Shown here: piece by piece, positions 208-44,728 of the stretch
How the letters are laid out: each line of letters begins with the position of its first letter
How positions within the stretch are numbered: position 1 is the first letter of the stretch
Source: Candidatus Stahliibacteriota bacterium
Lineage (GTDB): Bacteria > Hydrothermota > UBA3073 > JACQXS01
NCBI GenBank assembly: GCA_016208615.1
Contig: JACQXS010000002.1
Location: forward strand, 1 to 49,488
Direction of reading: 5' to 3'
Length of the DNA stretch: 49,488 nt
The notes under the pieces: generated by a model
Databases searched by the model: none
What the model was told of the DNA's origin: nothing
What the model saw: the letters and a program-made list of their open reading frames with translations, nothing else
Program-made: the position numbers and the translations under genes

Positions 208-1764
208 TTACCGCTTTAATTGTATGATTCCAAAGTCGGTGCTAAGATAGGCATATTCCTTATCCAATACTATTGAGTAAGTGCTGCCTTTTATAGGAGA
301 ATTGTTTGCAATGTATTGCTTCCATATATCGTGTTTCTTATCCCACACTGACACTCCTGCATCTGTTCCTACATAAAGTTCACTTGAATCCCCTGCTAAT
401 GCCAATATCCGTTTACCACATAGATAAACGGGGTAGATAAAGTATTGGTAATTAGTTCTCGGTTCTCGGTTCTCGTGAACCACTAATGCTTGTGAGGTGC
501 CGAAATAAATTTGTTTCCCATCAACTAATATTCTATACACTCCATGCGGAAGGATTTTAGAAGAGTCTTCAATTTTGCTCCACTCCGAAGCCCCTGTCTT
601 CAACCCCGCCGAAGCCACCGCTGAAGCGGGGCAAGCGGGATTTTCGCTTCGCTTCAACAATACGCCTCCGGGTGTAGCAACCCATATTTCATCATTATTA
701 ACCTTTACATCATTAACCCAAATATCACTTAAAACATCAACTATTTTGTTATTTACACATTTTAATAATCCTTTATGATTACCGACCCATATTTCTCCAT
801 CTGAGGTTGAACCTCCTCCCACAGCAAGACAAGAGACTTGTTTCTGATAGATATTATCCCATCTTTCTATTTGCTTGTCAAATCTAAATAGCCCATTAGT
901 ACCGCCAAGCCATATACTTACACTATCACTAACCATTGAAATCTGTTCGTTGGGTTCGTTTAGTTCGTTGGGTTTGTTTCCAAATTGTAAATAATAATTA
1001 GCTACCCATTTTTTCTTATCCCAGCGTATTATTTCTTGTGGTGTTCCCATCCATAGATATTCTCCATCTTGCAATATAGCAGACTTTTTATTAGGAACTC
1101 CAAAGATAAAGTGCTCATCCATATTTTTAGTTGTTTTATTGTATTTATAAATCCCATCCCCATTAGTGCCTATCCATACATATTGCTCGTCTTCATAAGC
1201 ACAGGTCATCGGATATTGGTTTAAGTATTTATCCATTACAAAATAAGGGGCGAGCCAAGGATATTTGGAAGGCAATGATTTAGGGAACCATTCGAGGTTG
1301 AACCTCTCTGCATCAGAAGGCAGAGAATCCAAAGGAAGCCGCTCTCTACTTAATTTATTAAACCTTATACACTTTGAGGTCGAACCTTGTTGCTTATTCC
1401 ATAAATAGATATAATCTTTGCTTATTCCTAATGAACAGGGCATACTTGTAATATTAGCAAAAATCTCTAAATCTTCAAAAACAGGGTTATACTTACCAAG
1501 TATAGTTGTCGTGGTGAACCAGAGTTCATTTGTCCAACCATCTATTGCGATGAAGTTAATATTATCAGGAAATGGATTATGAGTAATTGGTGTTTCCCAT
1601 TGCTCGGTTAATTTATCAAATCTTCTTATCCCTTTTGACCCGGCAAAATATACATATCTTGTATCGCTACTTATAGAATTAACAACCCTAAAATCTTCTA
1701 TCCACTTCCACCGCCACGGCTCATGGATATATCCTACTACAACTAATAGCAATAAACTAATCAT
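208..1764 (-). CDS. Secreted/periplasmic beta-propeller protein, function unknown
   Basis: 518 aa with hydrophobic N-terminus. Repeated blade motifs (VWIGTNGDGIYKY, IWLGGTNGLFRFD, IWVATPGGV, LYVGTDAGVSVWD). Carries several repeat-derived inserts. Confidence 0.7.
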   Translation of the reverse strand: MISLLLLVVVGYIHEPWRWKWIEDFRVVNSISSDTRYVYFAGSKGIRRFDKLTEQWETPITHNPFPDNINFIAIDGWTNELWFTTTTILGKYNPVFEDLEIFANITSMPCSLGISKDYIYLWNKQQGSTSKCIRFNKLSRERLPLDSLPSDAERFNLEWFPKSLPSKYPWLAPYFVMDKYLNQYPMTCAYEDEQYVWIGTNGDGIYKYNKTTKNMDEHFIFGVPNKKSAILQDGEYLWMGTPQEIIRWDKKKWVANYYLQFGNKPNELNEPNEQISMVSDSVSIWLGGTNGLFRFDKQIERWDNIYQKQVSCLAVGGGSTSDGEIWVGNHKGLLKCVNNKIVDVLSDIWVNDVKVNNDEIWVATPGGVLLKRSENPACPASAVASAGLKTGASEWSKIEDSSKILPHGVYRILVDGKQIYFGTSQALVVHENREPRTNYQYFIYPVYLCGKRILALAGDSSELYVGTDAGVSVWDKKHDIWKQYIANNSPIKGSTYSIVLDKEYAYLSTDFGIIQLKR

Positions 1765-1770
1765 AAGAAT

Positions 1771-1811
1771 TTTGTCCTCTGTCTTCTGTCCTCTGTTCTC
1801 TGTCTTCTGTC
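1771..1811. repeat. Intergenic 7-nt periodic tract (tctgtcc/tctgtct)
   Basis: tttgtcctctgtcttctgtcctctgttctctgtcttctgtc. Same unit at 3346-3396, 22693-22765 and 25767-25822. Confidence 0.85.
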
Positions 1812-1817
1812 ATATCT

Positions 1818-4800
1818 CTATTGTTTCTTAAAATCACATATTACTCTACAAGGGCAGAAGTCGCAGCTCATATATTTAGGTCGTGGCTCAAAATCATAAT
1901 CCCGTATGCCTTGGGCTACTTTTTTAATTGTCTTTTTTGCTTCCTCTGTCTTTTTGCTTATATCTTTTAATTCTGCCCTTATACCTGTATCAACGAACCA
2001 AAACTCTACCCGAGTAGGCAATATCCCAAATCTCTCCATAAAGGCAAGGGCATAAATAGGAAGTTGAATGCTGTCTCTGACCCTACCTCTGGCTTTATCA
2101 AGTGTCTCTACCTCTCCCGTCTTATAGTCTATTATTACACCTTCGTTATGTTCGTTTAGTTCGTATAAGTCCTTTCTAATTTTGGATTTTGGATTTTGTC
2201 CCGCAGTATCGGGATCCCGAAAAAAGCGGGAGATTTTGGATTTGATATCTACTCTATCCCACCTACCATTAATTCTAATATCATCCACCATAAAATGAAA
2301 TGGCTCCTCAACTAATGTAGGGATAGTATCGCTTCCCTCCTCCTCTTTCACGAATCGAGCTAATACTTCCTTACCTTGTTTAAATCTCTCTTCCTCATGA
2401 GATAGCGATATAAAACCTTCGCTCTCCCACGCAGATTCAAATATTTTTATAACCTCTTCTATTGTCAGTATCCTACTATTATGTTTTGCAAATAAATACC
2501 TCTCTATAGCCGTATGAACCGCCCCCCCATAAACCAGTGTATGATGTTTAGGTGTAGGCACCTTGAGCCAATTTATGTACCAGTATTTGCGTGGACAGGT
2601 AAGCCAATTATCTATGGCAGTAGAGGATAGAGCCACAATTCCTGTCTGTTTAGCTCTCTTCATATCAGTTATTTGCGTAGCACCAAATCCTTTAATCCGC
2701 TCCATAGCCTCTTTTTTTTGGGTAGTAATCGTCTTTTTTACTATGTCCAGTGCTTCTATCACGAATTGTGATAACTTGCCTTCCCTCCCGGGGCCATAAT
2801 TTTTTGCACTGCTTAGTATAAGTTCCTCTTTGGTGCGTGTCATACCAACATAAAAAAGCCGTCGCTCCTCTTGTAGGCTAATATCAGCAATAGATAACTC
2901 AGGCAATGGCTCTTTGATTAGTTTAGTAGGTAGCTCAACAAGGGTAGGCATTTTGCGATGTGGAAAATTATTCATAGTCAAGCCAACCATAAAGACAACC
3001 CTAAACTCTAATCCCTTAGCTTTATGAACTGTAAGTACCTGCACTGCATCTATATCCGAATCCGCTTCTGCTACCGGTGGATTGTCACCAAGTTCCATCA
3101 ATCCCTCTATATGAGAGATAACGAAAGGGGCTTTATTTATACGGATTATACTACTCACTTTATCAACGATATTAAAAAATTGGGCTATATTTTTTATCTT
3201 AATCTCGTTCTCTATGGAAGGATTGCTCACCATTTGCTGTAACCATCCCGTTTTGTATAAAAATTCATATAACACCTTACCCGTTGACTCCCGTAGCGAA
3301 AGGGACATAAAATATTCAATATCACTCAAAAATGCATCTATAGAATTCTGTTCTCTGTTTTCTGTTTTCTGTTTTCTGTCCTCTGTCTTCTGTCCTTTTA
3401 TTACTTCGTATAACGACTTTTTCGTCCTATAAGCTATGCCGAACCATTTATTTATATCAAGTGGATTTAGCTTATACCCAGGTGAAGTCAGTAATACATA
3501 AAGAGATTGACTATCTTTCACATCTCTCAATACTCGCAACAAGGAGAGTAAAACTTGTATCTCTTCCCTGTCATAAAGCCCTTGATTACCCGAGAACCTC
3601 CAAGGTAAGCCACGCAAATTTAAGGCACGCAAAAATTCATCCGCCATACTATTAGTTCTAACAAGGATAGCAAAATCACTATATTTATAGTCCAATTTGG
3701 GCAGTAGCCCACTTTGTTTGGGCAGTAGCCCACTCTGTTTGGGCAGTAGCCCACTTTGTTTGGGCAGTAGCCCACTCCGTTTCACTCGCTCTTCTATCAA
3801 TTTAGCAATTGCATCCGCCTCGGTAGAGACAGTATCATACTCCATATACTCAACCTTTTTCTCAAACAAATTTAACTCCCCGTTTTGATTTTTGACTTTT
3901 GTCCCGCACATAAATTTATGTGCGGGATGGCTTTTTAGGACCTTATCGCAGCCCGCCTTCCTCTCTAATCTATTGGGGTCATTAAAGAGAATAAGACGAC
4001 GCGAAGTATCAAGAATGCGTTGGGTGCTGCGGTAGTTATCAGTCAATACTATTTGATGGGCATCAGGATACAGGTCTTGAAAAGTTAATATATTCGCAAG
4101 ACAGGCACCCCTAAACTTATAAATTGCTTGGTCATCATCGCCAACAACCGTAATATTGCGATGTGTAGAGACTAATAATTGTAGGAGTTGGAATTGGGTA
4201 TAATTAGTGTCTTGAAATTCATCTACTAAGACATACTTAAATTTAGATTGCAGTTCACTCAATACACTACTCTTAGTTCGTAAAAGTCTAAGTGTCAAAG
4301 TAATAAGCCCCGGCATATCTACATAGCCCGCCTCTGTGAGCAGGGCTTCATATTTTTGATAACAATTAGCTATTTCTAATTGCTTATTTGCCTCTTCTGT
4401 TCCTGTACAATCAATTTGGGAGTATGCATATTCAAGATATTTATCAACACCGACATCCTCATCTTTGATACGGGAAATGACTTTTAATAAGGATTTCAGA
4501 TACTTTGTAGGATAAGATAGGGGTAAAAAATACTTTAACGGTAGTTCAAATAGCCGTTCCTTCAAAAAGACAAGCAACTCTGGCTCAGTTAGAATCTTAA
4601 AATCAGGATTTATCCCTAAGTCAAACGCATACTCGCTTAATATTTGCTGACAAAAGGAGTGAAAAGTGCTAATCCAGACAGGCACCATTCCATACGGGAC
4701 AAGCATATCAACTCTCGTTTCCATTTCTGCTGCTGCTTTGTCTGTGAAAGTAAGGGCAAGTATTTCTTCGGGACGCGCACTCTTATTGGCAATAAGCCAA

Positions 4801-4934: not shown

Positions 4935-5014
4935 TTAAGCATTAGCTTATTTCATATGGAATTTATTAACTTTTTGACCTTTGTGCCTTTTAACTTTGAA
5001 TTCTTAACTTTTAA

Positions 5015-6058
5015 CTATAAATAAGCACTAAAAGTTTCGTCTTCACCCATTCTGCGAATAAGTTCCTTAATTTCTCCTATATGGTGTTTATCGCAAACAA
5101 ACACTCTTTTACCGCTATGGACTATAATAAGATTTTCTACTCCTATTGTTGCAATAACTCCGCTATCCGAGACAATTATACAATTATCAGTTGACATACC
5201 TTTGTGTAATCCAACTTTTATATTCCCGTGGTCATCAGCATGATGCACCCGCTCAAGTGCATTCCACGACCCTACATCATCCCATATGAAATGAGCTTTG
5301 ATAACCGCTACACTATGCGACTTCTCCAACACAGCATAATCAATAGAGATATTGGGAGCTTTGTTGTAAAGGTCGAGCAAATTGGCTTCCCCGCTTGCTT
5401 CGGGACTTGCAGCAAATTTACATAACTCGCCATAAAAATCAGGTAAATGGGACTGGATTTCTGATAGTATTTTATCTCGCGTCCAGACAAACATACCCGA
5501 ATTCCAAAGGAACTTGCCTTCGTGTAGGAATCGCTGTGCTTGTTTTTGATTGGGCTTTTCCTTAAAGTTTTTTACCTTATAGACACCATCAGTAAGAGTA
5601 TCGCCAACCTCTATATACCCATACCCCGTTTCTGCCCTTGTTGGCACAATCCCAAAAGTGACCAGCCACCCCTCTTGAGCAAAGGTAATAGCTTTATTTA
5701 ATGTAGTAAGAAATGATTCTTTATCAGGAATATAATGGTCAGCAGGCAGAACTACCATTATATCGTCAGATTTGAGCTGTATTGCCCCATATCCAATAGC
5801 ACAAGCAGTATTACGACCGAATGGCTCTAAAAGCAACTTGATTTCCGAGGGAAGTATTTGTTTCAAGCAATCCTCATGCTCTTGACCAGCAACTACCATA
5901 ATTTGGTTACTCGGAATAAGAGGAGCTATTCTATCTACCGTTTCTACAATCATAGGGCGATTAGATATAAGAGGAAGTAATTGTTTAGGCATTGAGCGGA
6001 TAGAACGGGGCCAAAACCTCTCACCGCGCCCACCTGCTATTATTACACCATATATCAT
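5015..6058 (-). CDS. manC: Mannose-1-phosphate guanylyltransferase (no isomerase domain)
   Basis: IAGGRGERFWP..PKQ, EPFGRNTA, LPADH, ETGYGYI, FKEKP, WNSGMF, SIDYAVLEK and WDDVGSW motifs. Confidence 0.92.
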   Translation of the reverse strand: MIYGVIIAGGRGERFWPRSIRSMPKQLLPLISNRPMIVETVDRIAPLIPSNQIMVVAGQEHEDCLKQILPSEIKLLLEPFGRNTACAIGYGAIQLKSDDIMVVLPADHYIPDKESFLTTLNKAITFAQEGWLVTFGIVPTRAETGYGYIEVGDTLTDGVYKVKNFKEKPNQKQAQRFLHEGKFLWNSGMFVWTRDKILSEIQSHLPDFYGELCKFAASPEASGEANLLDLYNKAPNISIDYAVLEKSHSVAVIKAHFIWDDVGSWNALERVHHADDHGNIKVGLHKGMSTDNCIIVSDSGVIATIGVENLIIVHSGKRVFVCDKHHIGEIKELIRRMGEDETFSAYL

Positions 6059-6059
6059 A

Positions 6060-6212
6060 TCAAAAATCTAAATTCTAAATCCGAAGCACTAAATCCTAAA
6101 CAAACGAAGTGATGTAATCATCCAATCCCAATTCTCAAAATCCAAATAAATGTCAAAGTCATAAGTCAAAAAATCTTTCCTCCTTTGACATTTGGGTTTT
6201 GGATTTGAACTT
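6060..6212. repeat. Gene-less heptamer-arm element (YAAA arm, short TTTG arm) with one 21-bp hairpin insert
   Basis: Tetramers at 6069, 6076, 6083, 6090, 6097 and 6101, then a 21-bp insert, then 6122, 6129, 6136, 6143, 6147 and 6154. Ends in tttgacatttgggttttggatttgaac. Confidence 0.8.
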
Positions 6213-6238
6213 TCTTTATGGTTATTAGTATTCAGCAT

Positions 6239-7801: not shown

Positions 7802-7857
7802 TAAGTATATTTAAACACATTATTCCTATTATGCAAGTATTTTTATTATGGTTTTTG

Positions 7858-7885
7858 TTGACAAGCACATTATTTTTGATATAGT
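7858..7885 (+). promoter_or_regulatory. sigma70-type promoter for the cyclase gene
   Basis: TTGACA-16 nt-TATAGT, 32 nt before the ATG at 7918. Confidence 0.65.
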
Positions 7886-7917
7886 AAATGTAATTATTTA
7901 TCGTAAATTATAGAGCT

Positions 7918-10900
7918 ATGAAATGCCATAGATGTGGAACAGAAAATCCAGAAAGGGCGCAATTTTGCCTCAATTGTGGTGTCAAATTAGGAGCAATTGA
8001 AGTAACTGCGGAGCGAAAATTTGCTACTATACTATTTGCAGACCTTAAAGAATTTACTACTCTGTGCGAAGAAAAAGACCCGGAAGAAGTTAGAGAGATT
8101 ATTAAAGAACTATTCATAAGATTTGATAATATCTTAGAGAAATCACAAGTCGGCTATCACGAATATATTGGAGATGCAGTATTAGCGTTATTTGGCGTCC
8201 CTATTGCATATGGAGATGATGCTGAGCGAGCTATAACTGCGGGCTTATCAATGCAAGCAGAGATAAAAAAATTTGCCAAACAAATTGGAGTAAATATTGA
8301 AATGCGAATAGGTATAAATTCAGGTGAAATGATTTACGGCGAAATACCAGGCAAAACTACAGTAACAGGAGATGCAGTAAATACTACTCAGAGACTATCA
8401 GTAGAAGCGTCAGCGAGTAGAATTTTAATCTCAGAAGCAACAGCCAAGTTAGTAGAAGGCAAAGTCTATACGCATCCACTACCACCATTAAAATTAAAGG
8501 GCAAAAAAGAGGAAGTAATCGCATATGAAGTGATAAAAATGGCTAATAAAGTATATCCGGCTTTTTTGTCCCAAATAGTAGGGAGAGACAAAGAGTTTAG
8601 CCAACTTAAACAATTTTTTAGCCCAGAAACATCTGGACTTACATTTACGGTAGTTATTGGAGAGACTGGGATTGGGAAGTCAAGATTATTATTTGAACTG
8701 CGGAGATATTTAGAGAAAGAGCATCCTGCATTGAGGGTAATTACTATAAGGTGTGCACCGTACCGCACACTTATCTATCAAACGCTTGCAGATTTAATTA
8801 GAGAAGTAATTCAGGAAGAGAAATCAACCCCAATTACTACTGTGATTGAAAAAATTGAACCCAGAATAATAGCTTATGACCCACTTGCAAAGCACTTTTT
8901 AGGGCTTTTCTTTGGAATAAAATTCAACAATTCACCATTAGATTACCTAACCCCGGAGAGTGCTCGTCAGACTGCATTCGCAATACTCAAAAACCTATTA
9001 GAAGATATTGCAGGGGACAAAGAAATGGTAATTATATTTGAAGACTGTCATTATGCGGATAGCGGGACAACTGATTTTTTAGAATTCCTTACACAGACAG
9101 AAATTAATGCAAAGCTAAAAATTATGCTTGTTGGTAGAGCCGAAGGCATTGTGGAGGAAGTGAAAAAAGGAAAACTAAAAGGAAACTGGAATACTATAGA
9201 ATTGCAGCCATTAAATGAACAGGACAGCAGGACTATGATTAAAAATTTCTTCGGCCAAAAAGAGGTGTCAGAAGAGTTAATGCAAGCCCTAATCCAAAGA
9301 ACAGGAGGTAACCCATTATTTATAGAGGAATTTATCAAAGACATAAAAGAGAAAACAATTGCCTTAAAAGACCCCGATACCTCTTTGCCTAATAGTTTAT
9401 GGGCATTATTAGAGGCAAGAATAGATAGCTTCGAACCAATTGAAAGAACGCTACTGCGAACAGCTTCTGTGATAGGGAAAGTATTCTGGAAAAAAGTGTT
9501 AGAAAGGTTAATTACCCATAGTTCGTTAGGTTCATTATTGGGTCTACTTGAAGCCAAAGGCATTATTTATGAACAACAACCTTCACGGATACTAAAGACC
9601 CAAGAATTTGAGTTTAATCACGAATTGCTCAGGGAAGCCGCCTACAAGACAATCTTAAAAAAGCAAAGAAAAGAACTGCATAAAGAAGTTTTTTGCTCCC
9701 TAAAAGAACACTACGAAAAAGAAGAAATACAGATAGGGCTATATTTATATTTGGCTGCATATCACAGTGAATATGCAGAGGAATACGATGAAGCGGCTAA
9801 ATTTTATGAAGCATTAGGTGATAATGCAAAAGAAAGATATGCACACAGGGAAGCATTAAATTCATATACTAAAGCAATAGAAATTAGAAGTCAGAAAACA
9901 GAAGTCAGAAGTCAGAAGTCAGAAGTTGGACAATTGATAAATAAAAAAGCAGAATCAGAAATGTTTTTATGTGAGTATGACCGAGCAATAGAAGATTATG
10001 AAAAAATAGCTAAAAGTAGAGATAGGGAGACAAAGATTTTGGGCTTACTTGGATTAGCAAATGTGTACGATACAAAAGGTGATTTTGATACTGCGATAGA
10101 GTATTCGACAAAAGCAGAGCGGAATTCGGAAAAATATGGATTAATGGAACTATTCGCACAATCGTTACATCTTATTGGACGCAGCTATCTCGGGAAAGGA
10201 ATTTACGAGCAAGCATTAGAATATAACAAAAAAGCCATCACTTGCTACGAATCTCTTATACAAAACTCTAATCTCAAATCTCAAATCTCAAATCTCAAAA
10301 ATGGATTGGCTAAAAGTATTAAGAATATAGGAAACACTCACTGGTACAAGGGAGATTATGAATCTGCCATAGATTCCTATAAACAAAGTTTTGCTATCTG
10401 TGAAGAGATAGATGACAAGTATGGAGTCGCTCAAAGCATTAATAATATCGCATTAGTCCATAATGATAGAGAAGATTATCTAACGGCTTTGAAATTCCAC
10501 AACATAGCACTTAAAATGTATGAAGGGATGGGCGATAAAAGTGGAGTAGCTGCATGCCTAAATAATATCGGAATTGACTATGACCGAATAGGAGAGAAAG
10601 AAAAGGCACTAAACTTTTATAATCAAAGTTTGGAAATTTTCAATAGTATTGGAAAAAGGGATGAGGGGGCACTAATTTTATGTAATATTGGAAATGTACT
10701 ACACTATATCGGTAAATATGATGAAGCCATTGAAGTTCACGAGAAGGGTCTTAAAATACATAGAGAGAGTGGAGATAAACGAGGAATTGCTGTGTCGCTA
10801 AATAGTATTGGTGAGATTTATTGTGATAAGGGAGACTATGAGACTGCACTTACCTATCAAAAGGAAGCAGAGCAAATATTTCGTATCATCGGAGCCAAGT

Positions 10901-11412: not shown

Positions 11413-11429
11413 CTTCGGTTCTCTGCCTG

Positions 11430-11975: not shown

Positions 11976-12043
11976 CTTTCCACCTCCTTAATCTAATTTA
12001 CACTATGATAATCTAATGTCAACTAAAATTTATTTCCTTACTA

Positions 12044-12526: not shown

Positions 12527-12576
12527 AAAATATAAATCCCAAATCCCAATATCAAAATCCCAAACAATACCAATAA

Positions 12577-14883: not shown

Positions 14884-17047
14884 ATGGAGAAAAGAGTATT
14901 TTTTGGTCTGATTGTAGGGACACAATTTATTGTGTCCTCACTCGCACAGGCAGATACTACTTTTGTGAGTGGAACTATTGATACGAATACTGTATGGGAT
15001 ACAGCAGGCAGTCCATATATTGTAATTGATACTGTGCTGGTAGATAGTGGTGTAACTCTGAATATAGAGCCGGGGGTAGAAGTGAGGATTGACTCAGCAA
15101 AGTCTATAATGATAAAGGGCAATTTGTATGCGATGGGGACGGTGGCAGATTCTATTATAATCAGTGCACGATATACTACAAAAAGATGGGATAGACTATG
15201 GTTTAAGCCAGCATCTTCTTGCACTCTAAAATATTGTAGGATTGAATATGCAGGCAATTCAGCCATCTATGGCGAAAGCACTTCTTATCTCTATATAGGT
15301 TATAACACAATCTATAATAATTTGGGCTTTTATTCCAACTTGATTAGGTATGGGGGCGGTATTTATAGCGCCGGAATATGTGATATAATTAGTAATACTA
15401 TCTCTAACAACAGTGCTTCTATTTCAGGATATGGGTGTACGAGCTACGGTGGTGGTATTTATGCTTCCGGTTCGGCGAATATTATTAATAATACTTTTTC
15501 ATATAATCATGCTGATGGCGTAAATGGCGTAGCTAATGGTTATGGATATGGTGGTGCTATCTATACTTCTGGCATTTCTATAATAAAGGATAATGTCATT
15601 TCATATAATTCTTGTTACGGTAGTGGTCATTATGGTAGTGGTGGTAATGGTGGTGGAATATGTAATTTAGGTCAAGCTACGATAAGTAATAATATTATTC
15701 TAAATAACAGTGCCGGAGGTAGTTCACAACGTCCATCGGAAAGCAGTGGTGGCGGAATATACAGTTCTAATTGGGCTATAATATCAAATAACATTATTTC
15801 TAAAAATATAGCCAGCGGTAACGGTGGTCAGTGGTTTGGATATGCTGGTGGTGGCGGTATTTCTTGCCAGTGGATATGCCGAGATAGTAAATAATATTGT
15901 GGTCAACAATAAAATTAGCTCTTATGGTTGGTATGGTGCAAGTAGTAATGGAGGTGGTATATGCTCTGATTCGGGCAAAATAATCGGCAACATTATCTCA
16001 AATAATATTGTTGGCGCATATGGTTATATGAACGGATCTGCCATTGCTTCTGGTGGTGGTATTTTGGCTTTTCATCAGATTACGATAATGGATAACACAG
16101 TTTCTTATAATCTACTCAGTGCGAGTACATATACAGGTAATAGCTATGAATATGGCAGTGCTATCTATCTTGGCGAAGGGGTATCTGAGAGTAGGCATAA
16201 TACTATTGTCGATACAGGAAGATATACTATCTATATTGGAACTGGCAGTCCAGTGATTGACAGTAATAATCTATATTCCACTGGCTATATTATTTATAAT
16301 GGGAGCGTAAGTAATATAAATGCTCCATATAATTATTGGTATGCAACTGATACAAGTTCTATTAATGCGAAGATATGGGATTATTATAATAGCTCTGGTG
16401 TTGGCAAAGTTTTCTATGAGCCATTTTTAACATCAGGAGATACGATTGCTCCTGTCCCTCCACCACTTAGTCTTACTGCTACTCAAACTGGAGAGGGTAG
16501 AATTACTCTTAACTGGGATACTGTGAAAGTCTCAGACGTCGCAGGTTATAAAGTCTGGTATGACACAGACACATCGGGCTATCCTTATACGGGAACTGGT
16601 GCAAATGAAGGCAATTCACCAATTGAGGTGGGTAATATTACTACTTTTGAGCTTACTGGTTTAAGTGCACCGATTTATTATGTTGCTGTAACTGCATATG
16701 ACAATAGTGGTGATAGTTCTTGGTATAGTAATGAGGCGGTTGTTCAATTATTAGGAGTAGAGGAAGAGAGTCCAAAACCCAAATTCCAAAATGCGAAATT
16801 AGAAGTTTATCCGAACCCATCGTTTAGCAAGCCAGTAATAAAATATGAACTACCTGAAAAAGTATTTGTTAGTTTAAATCTTTATGATTTATCAGGCAGA
16901 TTGGTTAAACCCATTTATTCTGGGACTCAAGATAAAGGATATTACACAGTTGAGCTAAAAAGTAATGAACTAACTAAGGGTATTTACTTTATTAAATTTA
17001 AGGGCGATACTTTTACATCTACAAAGAAGCTCGTGATATTGAAATAG
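14884..17047 (+). pseudogene. Secreted beta-helix + FN3 + T9SS-type CTD protein split by a 1-bp frameshift near 15860 (pseudogene or sequence error)
   Basis: GGGI/NN beta-helix repeats run across both ORFs. Removing one T from ggtATTTCTTgcc joins GGGI to LASGYAEIVNN. FN3 (LNWD..GYKVWY..YYVAVTAYD) and VYPNP..LYDLSGRLV..GIYFI..KKLVILK tail. Confidence 0.8.
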
Positions 17048-17948: not shown

Positions 17949-18000
17949 ATAATTGAATAGTTGAATTTTAACCATTCACCATTTAACCAATTACCATTTA
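17931..18000. repeat. Inverted pair of ~8-nt periodic tracts (aaatggtt / aaccattt)
   Basis: aaatggttaagtagttaaataattgaatagttgaat then tttaaccattcaccatttaaccaattaccattta. Contains the hdrB stop codon. Confidence 0.75.
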
Positions 18001-18009
18001 AGCAATAAG

Positions 18010-18783
18010 ATGAGTGGTATTGATCTTCATATACATACGATTTTTTCTGATGGCACTTTAACGCCGGCTGAAGTAGTGAGAGTTGCGTCTGATGTGGGGC
18101 TTACGGCTATTGCTATTGCTGACCATGATGAGATTGGAGGAATAAACCCTGCTATAGAAGAAGTCAGAAGTCAGAAGTCGGAAATCAGAAGTCAGAAGTC
18201 GGAAATCAGAAGTCAGAAGTCAGAAGTTAGAAGTCAGAACCCTAAAAGTCAAACGACCGAGAACCCGATAACCGATAACCTGATAACCGTTAACCGAATA
18301 CCGATAGAAGTAGTGCCGGCGGTGGAAATTTCAAGTCAACTGGATGATAGGAGTGTGCATATTCTTGGGTATTTTATAGACCTTTTGAACCCTGAACTAA
18401 ATGACTTACTTTCTTTCATCTGCAAAGCAAGAATAGAGCGGTCGGAACAAATTGTTCTTTCGTTACAGGAGCTTGGAATTTTTGTGGATATTAAAGAGAT
18501 TGAAAAGATAGCGGGTCCCGGTGTTATTTGTCGTCCCCATATAGCGGCGGAAATGATAAATAGAGGCATAGTAGCTAACAAGGAAGAGGCATTTGGAAAA
18601 TACTTATCTTATCATAGCCCCTGTTATGTACCCAAAATTAACAAGCCAACCCCAGAAGTTATCAAAATTATAAATAATGCAGGTGGGATACCTGTTATTG
18701 CCCATCCATCCTATCTATCGGAAGAAGGGATTAAAAAAATTATAGATGATGAAGTATTACAAAAACTACGGAATTCGGCTTGA
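18010..18783 (+). CDS. PHP-domain metal-dependent phosphoesterase (TrpH/YciV-like) with ~49-aa repeat insert; apparently lacks the C-terminal SDxH segment
   Basis: DLHIHT..SDG, IADHD, VEIS, VHILGY, RPHIA and IAHP present. GIEV and GGSDFHG absent. Confidence 0.8.
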   Translation: MSGIDLHIHTIFSDGTLTPAEVVRVASDVGLTAIAIADHDEIGGINPAIEEVRSQKSEIRSQKSEIRSQKSEVRSQNPKSQTTENPITDNLITVNRIPIEVVPAVEISSQLDDRSVHILGYFIDLLNPELNDLLSFICKARIERSEQIVLSLQELGIFVDIKEIEKIAGPGVICRPHIAAEMINRGIVANKEEAFGKYLSYHSPCYVPKINKPTPEVIKIINNAGGIPVIAHPSYLSEEGIKKIIDDEVLQKLRNSA

Positions 18784-18807
18784 CAATTACATAAAGTGTG
18801 TTACTAT
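18780..18807 (+). promoter_or_regulatory. sigma70-type promoter (extended -10)
   Basis: TTGACA-16 nt-TACTAT with TG one base upstream of the -10. Confidence 0.65.
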
Positions 18808-18899
18808 AAAAAACAAGAAAATGGCAACTTTGTACTCGGATAAAGGGAATATGGACACAGATAATTGGAATATCCGAACAGATGAAAGAGTCGGATATT

Positions 18900-19067
18900 T
18901 GTACGGAAGGTTCGTACGCGTGTACGGAAGGTTCGTACGCGTGTACGGAAGGTTCGTACGCGTGTACGGAAGGTTCGTACGCGTGTACGGAAGCTCCGTA
19001 CGGTCAAACGGAAGCTCCGTACGGTCAAACGGAAGCTTCGTACGGTCAAACGGAAGCTTCGTACGCG
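18900..19067. repeat. 8 x 21-bp tandem repeat in two variants
   Basis: tgtacggaaggttcgtacgcg x4, one hybrid unit, then caaacggaagct(c/t)cgtacg.. x3. No spacers. Confidence 0.95.
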
Positions 19068-19115
19068 TGCGTGAAAGGAATATCCGATATGATTTATATT
19101 GGGTAGCACATTAAG

Positions 19116-25652: not shown

Positions 25653-25822
25653 CCCCTCTTTTAGACATTAGTTTTTATATTTCTTCTATTCCCTTCTTAC
25701 TACTTCTTTTTAACATTTGAACCTTGAACTTTTAGACTTCCTTATTTTCTACCCTTTTTTTCTTATTCTGTCCTCTGTCTTCTGTTTTCTGTCTTCTGTC
25801 CTCTGTCTTCTGTCCTCTGTCG

Positions 25823-26944
25823 TTACTCCTCTATTATCTCCACATTTGCTCGCGGTAGGGTAATACGGGTGCCGTCATCAAGCTCTACTTCAAATACCCG
25901 GGCTGTTGAGCCAGTCCCTATAAGCTGGAGTTCCGAGGGCAAGGCGATTACTTTACCTATCTTACCAAAATAAGGTTCCCGGATAATACGAATTTTAGAC
26001 CCCGCTTCTACGCCACGGACTTCTATCTTCTCTTTTACCTCGGTCAATGCTTCCTCAATTGGCACTATTACTTCGGGCCTTAATACACCAGCCCGAATTT
26101 GGGTCGCCCCATTTATACTTGCCTTCTTACCTTCATTGGTACACAATAATTCGTAGGTCCGTTTCGCTATATCCATTTGACCAAAGCCCTCGGTTACCAC
26201 AAGAGTTAGCCCTTTTTGCTCTGCCCCAGTTATAGCAATCCCAATATCGTAGCCCAAAAAATCCTTCAACTCCTTATCTGCTATGCCGCCTACTATTATA
26301 CCTTTACAACCACACTCTACTGCTTTGTTCAATACAGCACAACTTACATATGACCCAGCAATTATTATTTTGCCCACTAATTCAGCAGTTATATCAGTAG
26401 GAGACAAGACATCTGATGGAGTAGCAGATACTCTTTTAATTATACCACTTGTTTCGCCCCCTATACCGAAGATACCTTGAACAAAGGTGCCTATTGTTTC
26501 TACTACGACACCTTCATCAGGCAAAACTTCTGTTACCTCTCCATCTATGTAGGCATTGATTTCTACAAGAGCGGGCGGATACCTTAATATAGCCTGCCCC
26601 GTTATCTTGGAAAAACTCTCAAATGTCCCTTCTATTGGAGACTTGATTATTGTTTTGAGAAAACCAAATATGCCACCTGTCTGTGCAATTACTTCGTCCT
26701 TCGCTAATGCATCACCAGGATGTTTTAGAAGATAATGCTCCACATCTTCAGGCGGGACCCCCAATAAACCTGCTAAATTTAGGGGTGCCACATCTCCTGA
26801 AAGACGAGTCCGCGCCACTACTGTATCCGCCTTTACCTTATCTCCCTTATGGACTACTACTTCGCCCTTCAAAGGAAGCCTCCTTTCTTTACTTATTCTT
26901 GCTCTTTGGGTTACTTTTAACCCAGGCGTATATGCATGTGCCAT
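25823..26944 (-). CDS. Conserved hypothetical cytoplasmic protein (barrel-sandwich-hybrid-like N-part, KOW/SH3-like C-end)
   Basis: 373-aa well-formed ORF. LPLKGEVVVHKGDKVKADTVVA, QGIFGIGGE, TEGFG, NGATQIRAGV.RPE and IRIIREPYFGKIGKV. Confidence 0.7.
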   Translation of the reverse strand: MAHAYTPGLKVTQRARISKERRLPLKGEVVVHKGDKVKADTVVARTRLSGDVAPLNLAGLLGVPPEDVEHYLLKHPGDALAKDEVIAQTGGIFGFLKTIIKSPIEGTFESFSKITGQAILRYPPALVEINAYIDGEVTEVLPDEGVVVETIGTFVQGIFGIGGETSGIIKRVSATPSDVLSPTDITAELVGKIIIAGSYVSCAVLNKAVECGCKGIIVGGIADKELKDFLGYDIGIAITGAEQKGLTLVVTEGFGQMDIAKRTYELLCTNEGKKASINGATQIRAGVLRPEVIVPIEEALTEVKEKIEVRGVEAGSKIRIIREPYFGKIGKVIALPSELQLIGTGSTARVFEVELDDGTRITLPRANVEIIEE

Positions 26945-30891: not shown

Positions 30892-30896
30892 ATAAT

Positions 30897-30930: not shown

Positions 30931-30972
30931 GTATTCTCCGCCAGAGGCGGATCCCGCTACTACGGGAAAATC

Positions 30973-32019: not shown

Positions 32020-32039
32020 CTCCCCTCCTCTTTTTTTAA

Positions 32040-32199: not shown

Positions 32200-32216
32200 T
32201 CATTTTTGAGCCCTTT

Positions 32217-35306: not shown

Positions 35307-35329
35307 TATTCCTCCCTCCTTAATCATAT

Positions 35330-35466
35330 AAAGTTCAAATGTCAAGAATCTTTTCCTTTCTTTGACATTTGGATTTGATTTGTCCCGCATTAGCGGGATC
35401 CCAAAGAAAGCGGGAAACTTTAATCTTTGGCATTTGAACTTTAACTTTAACTTTAACTTTAACTTT
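35330..35466. repeat. Heptamer-arm element with nested 33-bp double palindrome and (aacttt)n tail
   Basis: aagttcaaatgtcaag...tttgacatttggatttgatttg[35383-35415]aactttaatctttggcatttg(aacttt)x5. Confidence 0.85.
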
Positions 35467-35474
35467 TTTTATCT

Positions 35475-38690: not shown

Positions 38691-38821
38691 CTTTCCCTCC
38701 TTCTTAAAATAACTTAACTATACCTACTGCCACAAAATCACTCCCGCTTGCTTCGGGATTTTCAATAAAACACTAAAATACACAAAAAATCATACAGTAA
38801 AATATCATTATCCTCCTTGCT

Positions 38822-38853
38822 ATAAAATAAAGGGTAGGAATTTCTTCCTACCC
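38822..38853 (-). terminator. Intrinsic terminator-like hairpin
   Basis: gggtaggaa-N4-ttcctaccc followed on the minus strand by tttattttat. Confidence 0.6.
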
Positions 38854-38896
38854 GCCTCTCTCTTCTTTTTTTGTTCCCCATTATCACCGAATACTG

Positions 38897-38927
38897 TTGT
38901 GAGCCCCGCCATCGGCGGGGCTCACAA
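38897..38927. other. Perfect 14-bp GC-rich hairpin 10 nt after a stop codon
   Basis: ttgtgagccccgcc-atc-ggcggggctcacaa. Confidence 0.8.
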
Positions 38928-38937
38928 GTTCACTAAA

Positions 38938-41145: not shown

Positions 41146-41328
41146 CTCAACCTCCTTCTCTTTAATTCTTAACCTTCTATCTGCACTCTATTGTTTTGTG
41201 TTCCACCTCCTTTTTTAAGTAGTTCATTTAATTATTTCAGTTGTTAGTATAATATGAGATTACAAATTTCTTTTGTCAAGTATTTTTTTATTTTTTATTA
41301 AAATATTTTTACATAGCTTAATTTTTGC

Positions 41329-41357
41329 TTGACATTTCTATATTTTGTAAGCATAAT
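41329..41357 (+). promoter_or_regulatory. sigma70-type promoter upstream of the four-helix-bundle cassette
   Basis: TTGACA-17 nt-CATAAT. Confidence 0.6.
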
Positions 41358-41365
41358 AGATAAAG

Positions 41366-41836
41366 AAAACTCAAATACCAAAGCTCAAATGTCAAATAAA
41401 GTCCAAAATCCAAATGCCAAATGCCCAAAAATATGATTTAGAAGAAAGAACTGCTAAATTTGGAGAAGAAGTTATTGAGTTTGTAAAAGGGGTTAGAAGA
41501 GATGAAGTTAATCATCCTTTGATTAGTCAAGTAGTGAGGTCTGCCACAAGCATAGGGGCAAATTATATGGAAGCAGATGGAGCAGAATCAAAAAAAGACT
41601 TTCAACACAAAATCGCTCTTTGCAAAAAGGAAGCAAAAGAAACAAAACATTGGTTAAGAATGCTTATTAAAGCAAACCCAGACAAGTATTCGGAGTGCCG
41701 AAAATTATGGCAAGAATCTCAAGAGCTAATTCTGATATTTTCTTCCATTCTTTTATCAAAAGGTAAACGCTAAAGAGCTTTTTGATATTTGAACTTTGAC
41801 ATTTGTTTGGAATTTGGATTTTGAACTTTGGATTTT
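41366..41836. mobile_element. Putative cassette: four-helix-bundle gene between inverted phased-tetramer arms
   Basis: Left YAAA and right TTTG tetramers, both spaced 7-7-7-4-7-7-7. Mobility is inferred only from dispersed gene-less copies. Confidence 0.55.
41414..41773 (+). CDS. Four helix bundle protein (23S rRNA IVP / Avd-like fold family)
   Basis: DLEERTAKF..QVVRSATSIGANYMEA..SKKDF.HKI..CKKEAKETKHWL..ELILIFSSI signature. Confidence 0.93.
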   Translation: MPNAQKYDLEERTAKFGEEVIEFVKGVRRDEVNHPLISQVVRSATSIGANYMEADGAESKKDFQHKIALCKKEAKETKHWLRMLIKANPDKYSECRKLWQESQELILIFSSILLSKGKR

Positions 41837-41842
41837 CAGGAT

Positions 41843-44728
41843 ATGATTTTAATTTATATTTTATTGATGAGTAGTGAGCCGATAAAGGTTAAGACTTATA
41901 CTACTAATCAAGATGTTATAGTTCACTATACTGTTCCTAATTTTGAGTCTAAGGTCAAAATAGCGGGTGGTCAAGAATTTATTGAGCTTTATCTTTCGGA
42001 TGTCCCGCCGAAGCCACCTCCGAAGCGGTTCACCACGACCTTCACGGCTCGACTGAGCTCGCCGAAGTCCACGGAGCGGGACAATCGGGATTTCCGTCCT
42101 GCTTCAACCGGTGTAAGTTCTGATATAGGTAAGCCCTGTCTTCCTGTAATTCGCAAGTTTATAGAAGTTCCTGAGGATGCTGAATTATCCATAGAAACTC
42201 AAATTGGTAGGGTTCAAGAATTTACATTAGCTTATCCCGTGTATCCTACTCAGCCGCCTGTGCCCAAAATTCCTAATTATACTCCTATCTTTACTCTTGA
42301 TAATGCTTCTTATATGGTAGATAACTTTTCTCCCTCTAATACTGCTCGTATAGTTTCTATTTTTGGTCTTCGTGGTCGTCGAGTAGCAATAGTAGAAGTT
42401 TATCCTATCCAATATAATCCTGTGCAGAACAAAGTTAGATTTGTATCTGATATTAAGGTTACCATTGTATTTCATAACGCAGATTGGGGTACCACTTTGG
42501 CTAAAATATCGCATTTCTATACTCCCTATTATGAATCCCGTTATCGGTTAATAGAGAATTATGATTATTTTAATCTTTTCAGGGAAAAAACTCTGCCAAT
42601 AGGTTATTTGATAATCACTCCTGACAGTTGGTATAACTCTATTCTTCCTCTGTCTAATTGGAAAGTTCAAAAGGGCTATTCTGTAAGTATAGCTAATCTT
42701 TCTGAAATAGGTGGCGGCGATACTACTACTGTTCGTAATTATATTAAGACTGTGTACGATAGTTGTCCTGTGCCGCCCACTTTTGTTTTGCTTGTAGGAG
42801 ATGTTGATTCTATTGGCTACTTTATAGACAGTATGAATAATAATCTGCCTACTGATTTATATTATAGCACAATGACTGATAGTGATTATTTTCCAGATAT
42901 AGATGTTTCGCGTTTTTCTATCTCTACTCAATTTGAGTTAGATAGTCTTGTCTCTAAGACTATAAAATATGAACAATGTGATTGGTCTAATGGTACTGAT
43001 TGGTGTAACAAAATGTATTTTATCGCCTCTGCTGATGGTGGCTGTCATCAGATAGCCGAATCTACACACCAATATTCTATGCAAGTTGCTCGTTCTCATA
43101 ATGTATTATGTGATTCGCTTTGGCTTTTTTATCACTCGGGTACTCCGATTATTGATGCTCTAAATGAAGGCAGGGCATGGGTTATATATTCAGGTCATGG
43201 AAGTTCTACCAGTTGGTCTGAGCCTGGTTTCAGTGTCAGTAATGTTCATAGTTTAACTAATGCAGATAAGCCCGCTTTTGTAGGTACTTTTGCTTGTTAT
43301 TCGGGGCGTTATACTGTGGGTGATTGTTTTTCTGAATCTTGGGCCCGTAGTGGCTACAGGGGAGGGATAGCCAGTTTTGCCTCTTCTGTCACTTCTTATT
43401 GGGATGAAGATGATATATTGCAGCGTCGTATGTTTGATGCAGCATTTGACTATAAGATTACATCGGTAATGGGTATGCTAAACAAGGGCAAATTACTCTT
43501 ATCTGCCTATTATGGTATTACGCCTACGGTTCAGCGTTATTTTGAAATGTATAATATGATAGGAGATGGCAGTATAAATGCTTATTGGGATGGGTTTATG
43601 TATGCGGACCATAATGTAGGGAATGTTAAGTTCACCGTTACATCTCAAGGGGCTTGTGGTTTTACAAGTCCCAATGGTAGTGGTAGTGGCTTCTGTTATC
43701 CCAATCCCGGGATTAACTATTTATACATAGGTTCATTGTGGATAGGTAATTCCAAAGATTATGTAGTTGATCGTGATACTGAAAATGATAGCGACTGGAT
43801 AGTTACCACTCTTCCTGATGGCAGGCTGAAGATTGGCGATAATTATTTTTCTGACCAAGATGGCTGGGCAATGTATAGTGATGCGGGACATCCCAATCCC
43901 AAAGGCATAACTGTAAAACAGCGGTCATGGGCTTGGGCGTCCGCTCCGTATAATGATTTTGTGATATTACAATATCTTGTAAAGAATGAGGGCCCTAATA
44001 TTATTCCCGGACTTTATGTAGGTCAGTTTATGGACTTTGATATTGATAGTGGTAGTTCAAACGACAATAATGTAAGTACTGATAGTATGCGGAAATTTGT
44101 CTATCAGTGGAGCAATTCACATAATGAATATATGGGTGTAACTTTACTTGACTCTAATAGTGTAGCAAATCTTAGTGCTATTAATATACCGGCTTATATG
44201 TTTCAGGGTGATTTTATGCGTTTCAAATTCCTTAATAAGGATTTGCATTTCCCTAATTCCAGTATTGTGGGGAATTATGGAGTAATAGCTTCTGCTGGTC
44301 CATTTAATTTGTTACCTGCCCAACAAGTTATAGTTTCTTTTGCTATAATTGCGGGTGATAGTTTAAGAGATGCATTATATAATTCTGATATGGCACAAGA
44401 ATTGTATGATTCAATAACAGGAATAGAAGAGACATCAGTAATTAGTATAGGTGAAATATTTTCTGTTCGTCCTAATCCATTTATAGGGAAAACAGTTATA
44501 GAGTTTAATGTAGGGACACGCCAGGGCGTATCCTTACAAATTTATGATTTAGCAGGCAGAATGACTAAGTCTTTTTCTCTAATCCCCAATCCCCAATCCC
44601 CAATTACCAGAGTGGTGTGGGATGGTAAGGATAACTATAATAGAAGCGTTCCTTCAGGGATTTATTTTTGTAAAATATCATCATCTGCAAATGAGGCAAA
44701 GATAAAAAAACTAATCCTCATAAAGTAG
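41843..44728 (+). CDS. Gingipain-family (C25) cysteine peptidase with propeptide and FlgD/T9SS-type CTD
   Basis: GKPCLPV propeptide, YLIITP, FVLLVGDVD, TDLYY, YSGHG (His) and FACYSG (Cys). Tail PNPF..IYDLAGR..WDGKD..SGIYF. Start taken at MILIYILL. Confidence 0.9.
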   Translation: MILIYILLMSSEPIKVKTYTTNQDVIVHYTVPNFESKVKIAGGQEFIELYLSDVPPKPPPKRFTTTFTARLSSPKSTERDNRDFRPASTGVSSDIGKPCLPVIRKFIEVPEDAELSIETQIGRVQEFTLAYPVYPTQPPVPKIPNYTPIFTLDNASYMVDNFSPSNTARIVSIFGLRGRRVAIVEVYPIQYNPVQNKVRFVSDIKVTIVFHNADWGTTLAKISHFYTPYYESRYRLIENYDYFNLFREKTLPIGYLIITPDSWYNSILPLSNWKVQKGYSVSIANLSEIGGGDTTTVRNYIKTVYDSCPVPPTFVLLVGDVDSIGYFIDSMNNNLPTDLYYSTMTDSDYFPDIDVSRFSISTQFELDSLVSKTIKYEQCDWSNGTDWCNKMYFIASADGGCHQIAESTHQYSMQVARSHNVLCDSLWLFYHSGTPIIDALNEGRAWVIYSGHGSSTSWSEPGFSVSNVHSLTNADKPAFVGTFACYSGRYTVGDCFSESWARSGYRGGIASFASSVTSYWDEDDILQRRMFDAAFDYKITSVMGMLNKGKLLLSAYYGITPTVQRYFEMYNMIGDGSINAYWDGFMYADHNVGNVKFTVTSQGACGFTSPNGSGSGFCYPNPGINYLYIGSLWIGNSKDYVVDRDTENDSDWIVTTLPDGRLKIGDNYFSDQDGWAMYSDAGHPNPKGITVKQRSWAWASAPYNDFVILQYLVKNEGPNIIPGLYVGQFMDFDIDSGSSNDNNVSTDSMRKFVYQWSNSHNEYMGVTLLDSNSVANLSAINIPAYMFQGDFMRFKFLNKDLHFPNSSIVGNYGVIASAGPFNLLPAQQVIVSFAIIAGDSLRDALYNSDMAQELYDSITGIEETSVISIGEIFSVRPNPFIGKTVIEFNVGTRQGVSLQIYDLAGRMTKSFSLIPNPQSPITRVVWDGKDNYNRSVPSGIYFCKISSSANEAKIKKLILIK

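Follow-up and report, generated by a model that had tools for sequence, protein, structure and literature searches.

The window analysed here is a stretch of 49,488 nucleotides, contig JACQXS010000002.1 of a Candidatus Stahliibacteriota genome (contig C62 of the bin G000 in our numbering), and the subject of this work is a large set of short tandem arrays, many with a 7-base unit, that lie inside and between its genes. The bin comprises 2.12 Mb in 126 contigs, is 83% complete and has a G+C content of 37.7%. Pfam matches to PorV, PorZ-like and Por_Secre_tail proteins in the genome identify it as that of a bacterium with a type IX secretion system (T9SS). By Pfam, the host genes in the window code for a UvrD/PD-(D/E)XK helicase, a cyclase-AAA-TPR protein, a PHP protein, MnmG, a protein with a T9SS tail and a C25 peptidase. 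A first-pass annotation of the letters had pointed to unrelated 7- and 9-base periodic tracts that are read in frame in many of these proteins. Tandem Repeats Finder (TRF) detected an array at 17 of the 17 places named there; all 13 in-gene tracts are read in frame, and translation of the host frames reproduced the peptides that had been quoted. The same units had been said to occur between genes, and arrays were indeed present at all four intergenic places named. The A-rich strand had been described as mostly the coding one, and in all 13 in-gene tracts of the window the coding strand has more A than T. The window contains the following arrays:

455-475, minus strand: GTTCTCG array of 3 copies in the PorZ-like propeller gene (208-1764)
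945-978, minus strand: 9-base array of the AACGAACNN type in the PorZ-like gene, reading NKPNELNEPNE
1773-1811, no strand: TGTCCTC/TGTCTTC array of 5.6 copies that fills the 53-base spacer from the helicase stop to the start of the next gene
2142-2245, minus strand: composite of a 9-base array (YELNEHNE) and 2.9 copies of ATTTTGG (NPKSK) in the nuclease domain of the helicase, residues ~903-930
3346-3396 (TRF 3346-3393), minus strand: TTCTGTT array of 6.9 copies in the helicase, reading GQKTEDRKQKTENREQ
3696-3776, minus strand: 21-base array of 3.9 copies in the helicase, reading SGLLPKQ four times
4987-5016, no strand: CTTTTAA array of 4.3 copies at the junction of the NTP-transferase stop and the helicase start
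6064-6100, no strand: AAATCCT array of 5.4 copies just upstream of the NTP-transferase start, where independent contigs break
9879-9926 (TRF 9886-9926), plus strand: AGAAGTC array of 5.9 copies in the cyclase-AAA-TPR protein, reading EIRSQKTEVRSQKSE
10261-10300 (TRF 10261-10299), plus strand: CAAATCT array of 5.6 copies in the cyclase-AAA-TPR protein, reading QNSNLKSQISNLK
12534-12564, no strand: AAATCCC array of 4.4 copies in the spacer between two minus-strand genes
16771-16800 (TRF 16771-16792), plus strand: TCCAAAA array of 3.1 copies (PKPKFQNAK) in the linker that leads into the T9SS C-terminal sorting domain (LEVYPNP)
18159-18306, plus strand: 45-residue insert of the PHP protein, made of 11.6 copies of AGAAGTC (RSQKSEI/V), a short AAATCC-like joint and 7 copies of ACCGATA
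18900-19069, no strand: 21-base array of 8.1 copies between the PHP and the LVIVD gene, in two subtypes that each have a short palindrome
19224-19312, plus strand: 21-base array of 4.2 copies (FDDYITA four times), member of a 13-locus family
22284-22322, minus strand: irregular 7/8-base array, a 6-residue insert of MnmG, reading RVQNSKFKGSRVQ
22693-22765 (TRF 22694-22763), minus strand: TCTGTCT-type array of 10 copies, an insert of ~29 residues in MnmG, reading ETEDRGQKTEDRGQRTEDRGQKTE
23038-23190, minus strand: three AAATCC-type arrays together with unique spacers; they add ~50 residues to a variable loop of MnmG
25766-25821, no strand: TTCTGTC/CTCTGTC array of 8 copies that abuts the stop of the gene 25823-26944
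44581-44608 (TRF 44581-44604), plus strand: AATCCCC array of 3.4 copies near the C-terminus of the C25 peptidase, reading IPNPQSPIT

TRF reported rows 18159-18239 (AGAAGTC) and 18256-18306 (ACCGATA) for the PHP insert and rows 23038-23069, 23102-23130 and 23158-23188 for the longest MnmG insert. The rows in the helicase composite are 2142-2170 (period 9) and 2179-2198 (AAATCC type); of the tract described earlier for 2179-2245, only part is repeat. Likewise, an array is present at 22284-22322, but it is irregular and of period 8 (TRF row 22284-22305, unit TTGAACCC). The 9-base unit AACGAACNN is real as well, but it forms a small family of ~10 loci, and no general excess was seen at lag 9.

Contigs that are near-identical to the window are present in four runs of one groundwater-metagenome study. 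Separately built contigs of three of these runs (X1-X3) cover the window at ~2-7x with few differences, and contigs of three to four separately assembled runs extend into the arrays and differ little or not at all from the bin there. Because these contigs contain the arrays, the latter are not an artefact of the bin, although the runs belong to a single study, probably the source of the bin, and are not fully independent of it. The independent contigs end within arrays (at 18188, 10270 and 6093, for instance), and for arrays that exceed the 31-letter assembly words the copy number is that of the bin assembly. In the intervals 9303-10636, 17974-18640 and 22643-23299 the summed contig depth of runs X1-X4 was 10-20x the organism's own (~5-6x), with many different loose ends. 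We attribute this 10-20-fold rise at arrays to the many other loci that share the array units; such units would sit at many other places in the community, possibly in other organisms as well. A genome of the same genus was not found, the nearest relatives being members of the same family with ~49-62% protein identity. A metagenome scan for close relatives returned 15 loci, with full-length matches of only 36-43% identity and three short N-terminal matches of 63-74%.

We compared three host proteins of the window with their orthologues. Residues 51-95 of the PHP protein, comprising the RSQKSEI repeats, the joint and ITDNLITVNR, are absent from 11 of 11 orthologues. MnmG has ~50, 29 and 6 extra residues at three sites that are absent from 8 of 8, and in the helicase both the 21-base array (SGLLPKQ x4) and the NPKS/NELNEHNE composite are absent from 7 of 7. 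None of the three comparisons thus shows the conservation in distant orthologues that had been named as the mark of an ancient linker. The description of the tracts as in-frame insertions holds for the residues added in all three proteins, but not for the TEDRKQK tract of the helicase (3346-3396), which replaces a variable segment and adds nothing to the overall length. The MnmG insert sites are indel-prone: one relative has an unrelated insert of 17 residues at the first site, and mnmG of the relative G008 (locus L135) carries a KSEIRSQ-type insert of its own, a few residues away from the second site, and a further insert near the third. In the helicase of G002 (L145), RQETRDK repeats are located at exactly the site of SGLLPKQ, the first helicase site. 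The heptad-type inserts of the relatives share loops with G000, but their positions are slightly shifted and their units differ. Judged from these alignments, the inserts are best described as lineage-specific additions in variable loops and linkers and not as ancient linkers. An AlphaFold2 model of the PHP protein had a mean predicted local distance difference test (pLDDT) score of 78.7. In it the RSQKSEI repeats appear as a helix (residues 45-76, block pLDDT 76-90), which juts out between elements of the core and gives way to a low-confidence stretch; modelled helices of repeat sequence are to be read with caution.

Two of these hosts show damage. The only mnmG of the genome is broken at 22577-22600, between the minus-strand open reading frames (ORFs) 21633-22577 and 22594-23592; it lacks ~57 residues, among them the conserved GPRYCPSIEDK stretch (Pfam GIDA positions 216-294), and its two halves lie in different frames. 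No repeat array coincides with this break, which is the only gene break observed in the window, and an independent contig (X1 record 8) ends beside it, at 22598. It is possible that it is a strain variant or an assembly join. The PHP protein lacks ~54 residues close to the C-terminus (18740-18783), including the GGSDxHG motif that is kept in 11 of 11 orthologues, and the deletion appears to be in frame. No second PHP copy was found by tblastn of the genome.

The periodicity is a property of the whole genome. TRF rows numbered 660 for period 7, 193 for period 14 and 181 for period 21, compared to 76 and 52, 15 and 13, and 0 and 1, respectively, in two order-5 Markov simulations that served as chance control. 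A scan for self-identity at exact lags gave 121, 88, 162 and 36 segments at lags 7, 14, 21 and 28, while every other lag from 4 to 30 gave just 0-19. Both methods support the earlier claim that the process is genome-wide. When the smallest adequate period was assigned to each TRF array, 147 arrays had period 7, 76 period 14 and 116 period 21. The largest other classes were period 15 (50 arrays), 8 (32), 18 (27) and 12 (22), and the multiples of 3 next to 21 were much scarcer than 21 itself (period 24 with 6 arrays, besides period 18). Among 30 long coding arrays the best lag was 21 in 10, 28 in 7, 7 in 6 and 14 in 5, with 2 ties; the lead of lag 21 is as expected from in-frame steps, but is suggestive only. 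Array length modulo 3 or 7 was flat and is uninformative, because the array borders are fuzzy.

The 660 rows of period 7 reduce to 188 canonical units, of which few are dominant. The commonest are AAGACAG (55 rows), AAATCCC (47), ACAGAGG and AAAATCC (25 each) and AAAGTTC (22), followed by AAAAATC and AAGTCAG (21 each), AAATCCT (20) and AACCGAT (18). Most dominant units are single-base neighbours inside two superfamilies, CAGA-NNN (AAGACAG/AGGACAG/AAGTCAG/AAAACAG) and AAATCC-like (AAATCCC/AAAATCC/AAATCCT). Single-base differences also separate the units inside arrays. With 245 of 660 rows in these two superfamilies, the units cannot be called unrelated, as they had been. The further argument that a fixed core plus variable bases contradicts slippage also does not hold, since point mutation and slippage inside arrays would yield the same pattern. 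Different unit families often adjoin inside one insert, as in PHP and MnmG. The MnmG array at 22693-22765 and an array on contig C100 have a 47-base stretch in common, and a shorter one is shared with an array on C37; a rare variant unit is part of both stretches. The flanks of arrays with a common unit show no conserved motif (information content mostly <0.5 bit) and thus no transposon-like ends, and the unit phase at the array ends varies. A mobile palindromic element or one resembling a miniature inverted-repeat transposable element (the RPE, REPIN and SDR types) was rejected on these grounds, as no ends are defined.

For the placement of arrays, genes were approximated by 1,929 non-overlapping open frames of ≥80 codons, which cover 91.4% of the DNA and are not the output of a gene caller. 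We used a stringent set of 151 lag-7 arrays, of which 133 lie wholly within a frame, 5 overlap a frame end and 13 lie between frames. The 133 in-frame arrays are distributed over 109 host frames, whose median length is 438 residues; no more than 5 of these hosts are shorter than 150 residues, and 20 have two or more arrays. At least 40 open codons on both sides were found for 105 of the 151 arrays and for 70.1% of 1,500 random positions, and the arrays are therefore neither enriched nor depleted in coding DNA.

Within the frames, the arrays show a marked preference for strand and composition. A stop in the consensus unit led to the exclusion of 6 of the 133 in-gene arrays. Among the remaining 127, the opposite strand carries a stop in 31, and 96 are free of stops on both strands; in 77 of these 96 the coding strand is the more hydrophilic one. 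On the coding strand A exceeds T in 98 of the 127 arrays, T exceeds A in 21, and 8 are equal. The mean hydropathy of the coded heptads is −1.49, compared to −0.12 for the proteome; ~19 arrays would encode hydrophobic heptads such as CLLSSVF in putative open frames. Strand choice, A-rich bias and hydropathy support the view, put forward in the first-pass annotation, that selection filters the inserts. In addition, 8 of the 133 in-gene arrays, including that at 16771-16800, are followed within ~20 residues by [YF]PNP, a motif found near the frame end in only 53 of the 1,929 frames; this interval at the start of the sorting domain makes up ~0.16% of the coding DNA. Heptamer arrays have a hot spot in the linker directly ahead of the T9SS C-terminal sorting domain.

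Arrays of period 21 form a class of their own. TRF reported 116 primitive ones (11.3 kb in total), of which 40 lie wholly between frames and 10 overlap a frame end. The exact-lag scan gave 113 lag-21 segments with a score of ≥21, and 88 of them have a lag-7 identity below 0.6: 33 between frames, 6 overlapping a frame end and 49 inside frames. The circular lag-7 identity of the consensus units is 0.215 compared to 0.250 in shuffles, and thus these period-21 arrays have no 7-base substructure. Period 21 dominates between genes too, where coding constraint cannot account for it. Many of the 21-base units contain a short palindrome. The arrays form at least 67 clusters, and the largest, with 13 loci, includes that at 19224-19312 and lies wholly between frames at 7 loci and overlaps a frame end at 1.

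Two ORFs, 18746-19114 (plus strand, 122 residues) and 18804-19109 (minus strand, 101 residues), overlap at the array 18900-19069. They are probably not genes and are open because the 21-base array has no stops. Other short-period arrays in the window are a 15-base TTTAACCAATCACCA array of 2.7 copies (17967-18006), a 15/9-base array of the GGTAGTGG type (15619-15656) and a 6-base AACTTT array of 8 copies (35416-35466), which are located at gene junctions or in a beta-helix protein.

We searched for the units in other genomes. Three copies of AGAAGTC, with one mismatch allowed, were found in 13 of 151 genomes sampled from the phylum, with 19 matches in G000 and 16 in G008; the reversed control gave 1 match in total in the 151 genomes. 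The AGACAGA pattern was found in 11 of the 151, with 71 matches in G000 and at most 7 elsewhere; this pattern is identical backwards, which makes its control void. The exact 21-mer of three AGAAGTC copies occurs at at least 121 loci of a species-genome collection and in many phyla, while by our own arithmetic ~0.3 would be expected by chance. The hosts listed include cyanobacteria (among them Okeania, Moorena and Crocosphaera), Acidobacteriota, Nitrospirota, Verrucomicrobiota, Planctomycetota, Bacteroidota and Proteobacteria. Among the matches listed, only 35 of 125 AGAAGTC arrays of other phyla lie inside a spanning frame by the open-codon test used above, and 0 of 125 are read on the stop-containing strand. 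The density of lag-7 arrays was determined by unbiased lag scans of 82-400 kb per genome. Per Mb, it was 88 in G005, 81 in G002, 73 in G017, 68 in G008, 57 in G000, 26 in G015, 15 in G009, 6 in G001 and 0 in each of G026, G012 and G029, the samples of G002, G008 and G017 being partly picked from contigs with a known match. G001 and G002, which belong to one genus, differ more than 10-fold.

Taken together, the tracts are heptanucleotide tandem repeats of the kind known as long simple sequence repeats (LSSRs) or short tandemly repeated repetitive sequences (STRRs). We favour the view, with a probability of roughly 0.55, that slippage or unequal exchange in a 7-base register changes their length and that selection filters them. 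Heptamer arrays have multiplied in the G000 lineage until they were evenly spread over coding and non-coding DNA. The arrays share with LSSRs and STRRs the head-to-tail 7-base units in three or more copies and the excess over chance and over other periods; they are not, as LSSRs are, mainly intergenic and depleted in coding DNA, since 133 of 151 lie in open frames. According to this proposal, arrays would grow and shrink in the 7-base register through strand slippage or unequal exchange, and point mutations would yield the neighbouring unit variants. New loci would be seeded by homology- or template-guided copying from existing arrays, which is the weak link of the proposal. Selection would then remove arrays that shift the frame, carry a stop, encode a hydrophobic heptad or lie in a structured part of the protein. 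The survivors would be net multiples of 3 bases, that is, charged or polar 7-residue repeats in loops and interdomain linkers, notably ahead of the T9SS sorting domain, and arrays in intergenic spacers.

Several observations are difficult to reconcile with repeat growth of this kind. Local slippage alone predicts locus-specific units, and AAGACAG and AAATCCC recur at unrelated loci. The exact AGAAGTC 21-mer is found across phyla far above the chance expectation, three loci share a rare variant pattern over up to 47 bases, and some tracts, that of the helicase among them, replace native residues instead of adding to them. The lack of coding depletion is hard to reconcile with random 7-base steps, because two thirds of these shift the frame. 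Finally, 88 period-21 arrays without 7-base substructure, 33 of them wholly between ORFs, have to be explained. The shared variant patterns, the replaced segments, the missing coding depletion and the 21-base arrays leave room for template-guided or element-linked copying, to which we give a small chance. The active writing process proposed earlier is in line with arrays all over the genome, but no writer enzyme was found, and there was no match to the reverse transcriptase family RVT_1 in the 83%-complete genome. Loss of mismatch repair was ruled out as a cause, since MutS (a frame of 871 residues) and MutL (535) are present without stops.

A competing explanation, which we consider unlikely, is that a dedicated system tied to cassettes of PF05635 (S23p/Avd-like), each with inverted heptamer arms of its own, makes or spreads the arrays, and that the in-gene tracts are arms or products deposited elsewhere and then subjected to selection. 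PF05635 has 10 matches in the genome, and 9 of these exceed the Pfam cut-off. An array of period 7, 14 or 21 is located at an end of 7 of these 9 genes, compared to 86 of 550 background frames of 90-200 residues, and at both ends of 4 of 9, compared to 9 of 550. The pairing energy of the flanks was extreme for only 2 of 9 cassettes, and therefore a test for inverted k-mers was used in its place; 6 of the 9 genes rank in the top 17 of 493 for inverted 7-mers shared between the flanks. One such cassette is part of the window:

41366-41430, plus strand: arm of degenerate heptamers of the CAAAT/AAATCC type, upstream of the four-helix-bundle gene
41414-41773, plus strand: four-helix-bundle gene, PF05635, 23S rRNA intervening sequence (IVS) protein family (E 3e-15, 56.8 bits, cut-off 33.8)
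41775-41842, plus strand: arm of reverse-complement type (TTTGAAC/TTTGGAT), downstream of the four-helix-bundle gene

The arms of this cassette share 14 inverted 7-mers, a number reached by 0 of 493 background frames. They pair in the predicted minimum free energy and centroid RNA folds, with a z-score of only −0.71 for the whole fold. The cassette lies between protein genes and not in 23S rRNA. Across the cassettes of the genome, arm units match in-gene families (AAATCC types, AACCGAT and AAAGATG). By eye, most of 10 further cassettes in the relatives G001, G002, G008 and G015 have heptamer arrays upstream and the complementary type downstream. PF05635 is present in 16 of the 17 genomes with either probed array and in 65 of the 134 others among the 151, which are related genomes and not independent samples, and three of four sampled PF05635-free genomes had no array in 139-200 kb. 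In Coxiella, three GACAGAT copies and one GACAGAA lie just before the S23p ORF of the IVS and belong to the top unit family of G000 (PMC4990558).

Other data speak against a role of the cassettes. With a profile from 8 local proteins, a PF05635-like frame was found within ~600 bases of 0 of the 121 AGAAGTC loci listed from other phyla; the hint at four-helix-bundle paralogues in the first-pass annotation is thus backed by the arrays at the ends of these genes in G000, but not by the loci elsewhere. G005 has 9 arrays in 102 kb and no PF05635 match (its genome is 83% complete), and G001 has 4 PF05635 copies and near-background arrays. The largest families, those of the CAGA type, are without a cassette in the assembly, and only 9 of 120 neighbouring array pairs are inverted. 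The missing reverse transcriptase and the pairing energies also count against it. The broader version, in which a machinery of many phyla tied to PF05635 cassettes copies or synthesises DNA in a 7-base register (7, 14, 21) and deposits it anywhere, appears to us slightly more doubtful still. Two inverted pairs of the AAATCCC or CTAACCC type in G000 (C57:21461-21907 and C76:10330-11102) are located around or within frames that do not belong to PF05635. They may represent arms that carry other cargo or none.

It is improbable that the arrays are kept for their use, as contingency loci that switch by 7-base steps or as selected flexible or helical spacers or regulatory sites. Heptanucleotide repeats at coding starts or promoters have been described as phase-variable elsewhere (neuO, HMW1A; PMC13001214, PMC8262952), the PHP repeats were modelled as a long helix, and many arrays lie at gene junctions. 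However, on/off switching makes little sense for housekeeping enzymes such as MnmG, the helicase and PHP, insert sites and units vary between relatives, and placement in open frames equals that of random positions. Very improbable, finally, is an origin of the tracts as assembly artefacts of the bin or as ancient linkers common to distant orthologues: the 126-contig draft state, the contig breaks in long arrays and the damaged MnmG and PHP genes would fit the former, but separately built contigs enter the arrays, the frames are open in 109 hosts, which makes an assembler artefact untenable, and the absence of the inserts from all orthologues compared largely refutes the latter.

G000 represents the phenomenon at saturation: in-frame arrays are present in 109 or more open frames, among them those of MnmG, a repair helicase and a PHP phosphoesterase, and are visibly sorted by selection for strand, frame and site. 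It amounts to a natural experiment on how proteins gain loops and linkers and on which positions accept them. Plain slippage does not readily account for three features, namely the strict quantisation in 7, 14 and 21 bases even between genes, the identical units across phyla and the link to four-helix-bundle cassettes, and these are handles for finding the mechanism. If a PF05635-linked machinery did exist, in-frame tracts, intergenic heptamer arrays and dispersed 21-base arrays would all be its output, and it would explain the 'prime-number periodicity' of bacterial repeats and supply new protein loops. A practical consequence is that the arrays break short-read assemblies and create ORFs that are probably spurious, such as 18746-19114.

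Heptamers are reported to be the commonest class of long simple sequence repeats in bacteria (PMC4679880, PMC4692102, PMC6344855) and, according to PMC4692102 and PMC6344855, lie mostly between genes and are scarce in coding DNA relative to other DNA. LSSR/STRR-type repeats are known from cyanobacteria, Xanthomonas, Geobacter and others (PMC4692102, PMC2700814). In our literature search, which left most subscription journals outside, we found neither a description of genome-wide in-frame heptamer arrays in housekeeping genes nor a link of heptamer arrays to PF05635 beyond Coxiella. The arrays of G000 resemble the prokaryotic heptanucleotide LSSRs (Mrazek, Guo and Shah 2007, via PMC4679880 and PMC4692102) in their head-to-tail 7-base units, dispersed loci and patchy taxa. 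The function of LSSRs and of the 'tandem heptamer DNA repeats' is likewise not known, one survey finding 'no clear clue' to their meaning (PMC6344855), and the idea of slippage originates in the LSSR literature. Unlike LSSRs, the G000 arrays lie mostly in open frames and are accompanied by equally abundant period-21 arrays without 7-base substructure.

The STRR of heterocystous cyanobacteria reportedly comprise the units STRR1-3 (Mazel et al. in 1990). As in G000, tandem heptamers occur in many copies in these cyanobacteria (Mazel et al. 1990, via PMC4692102) and as GGGNATC in Nostoc and Xanthomonas; the AATCCCC unit at 44581-44604 is complementary to the GGGGATT type of this series (PMC4692102). 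G000, however, belongs to another phylum and is a small T9SS-bearing groundwater bacterium, with mostly A-rich units that would not be expected to fold into quadruplexes and a coding location. Its T9SS genes, its 2.1 Mb and its 38% G+C place it outside the cyanobacterial group, and its units differ from those of the STRR. In Geobacter metallireducens the elements consist of four GGACCGG heptamers, a single GC-rich unit of fixed length, and were interpreted as regulatory RNA (PMC2700814), whereas G000 has many units, variable lengths and, through orthologues, proof of in-frame inserts. The phase-variable repeats of neuO and HMW1A have the same unit length of 7 bases, and only every third copy number keeps the frame. 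They are single loci in surface or phage genes with demonstrated switching, whereas G000 has hundreds of loci, including housekeeping genes.

The closest parallel to the cassette at 41366-41842 is the 23S rRNA IVS of Coxiella burnetii, which has the same design, a PF05635 ORF within inverted repeats with GACAGAT/GACAGAA before its start; the copy number of the GACAGAT heptamer varies between Coxiella strains (PMC4990558). In contrast to the IVS, the cassette of the window lies outside rRNA, is one of 10 PF05635 matches in its genome and is known here from its sequence. Rickettsia palindromic elements are palindromes of 100-150 bases with conserved sequence that are located in frame in surface loops of conserved proteins. 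They and the arrays of G000 have in common that they are tolerated in frame, but the latter are simple tandem arrays without conserved ends.

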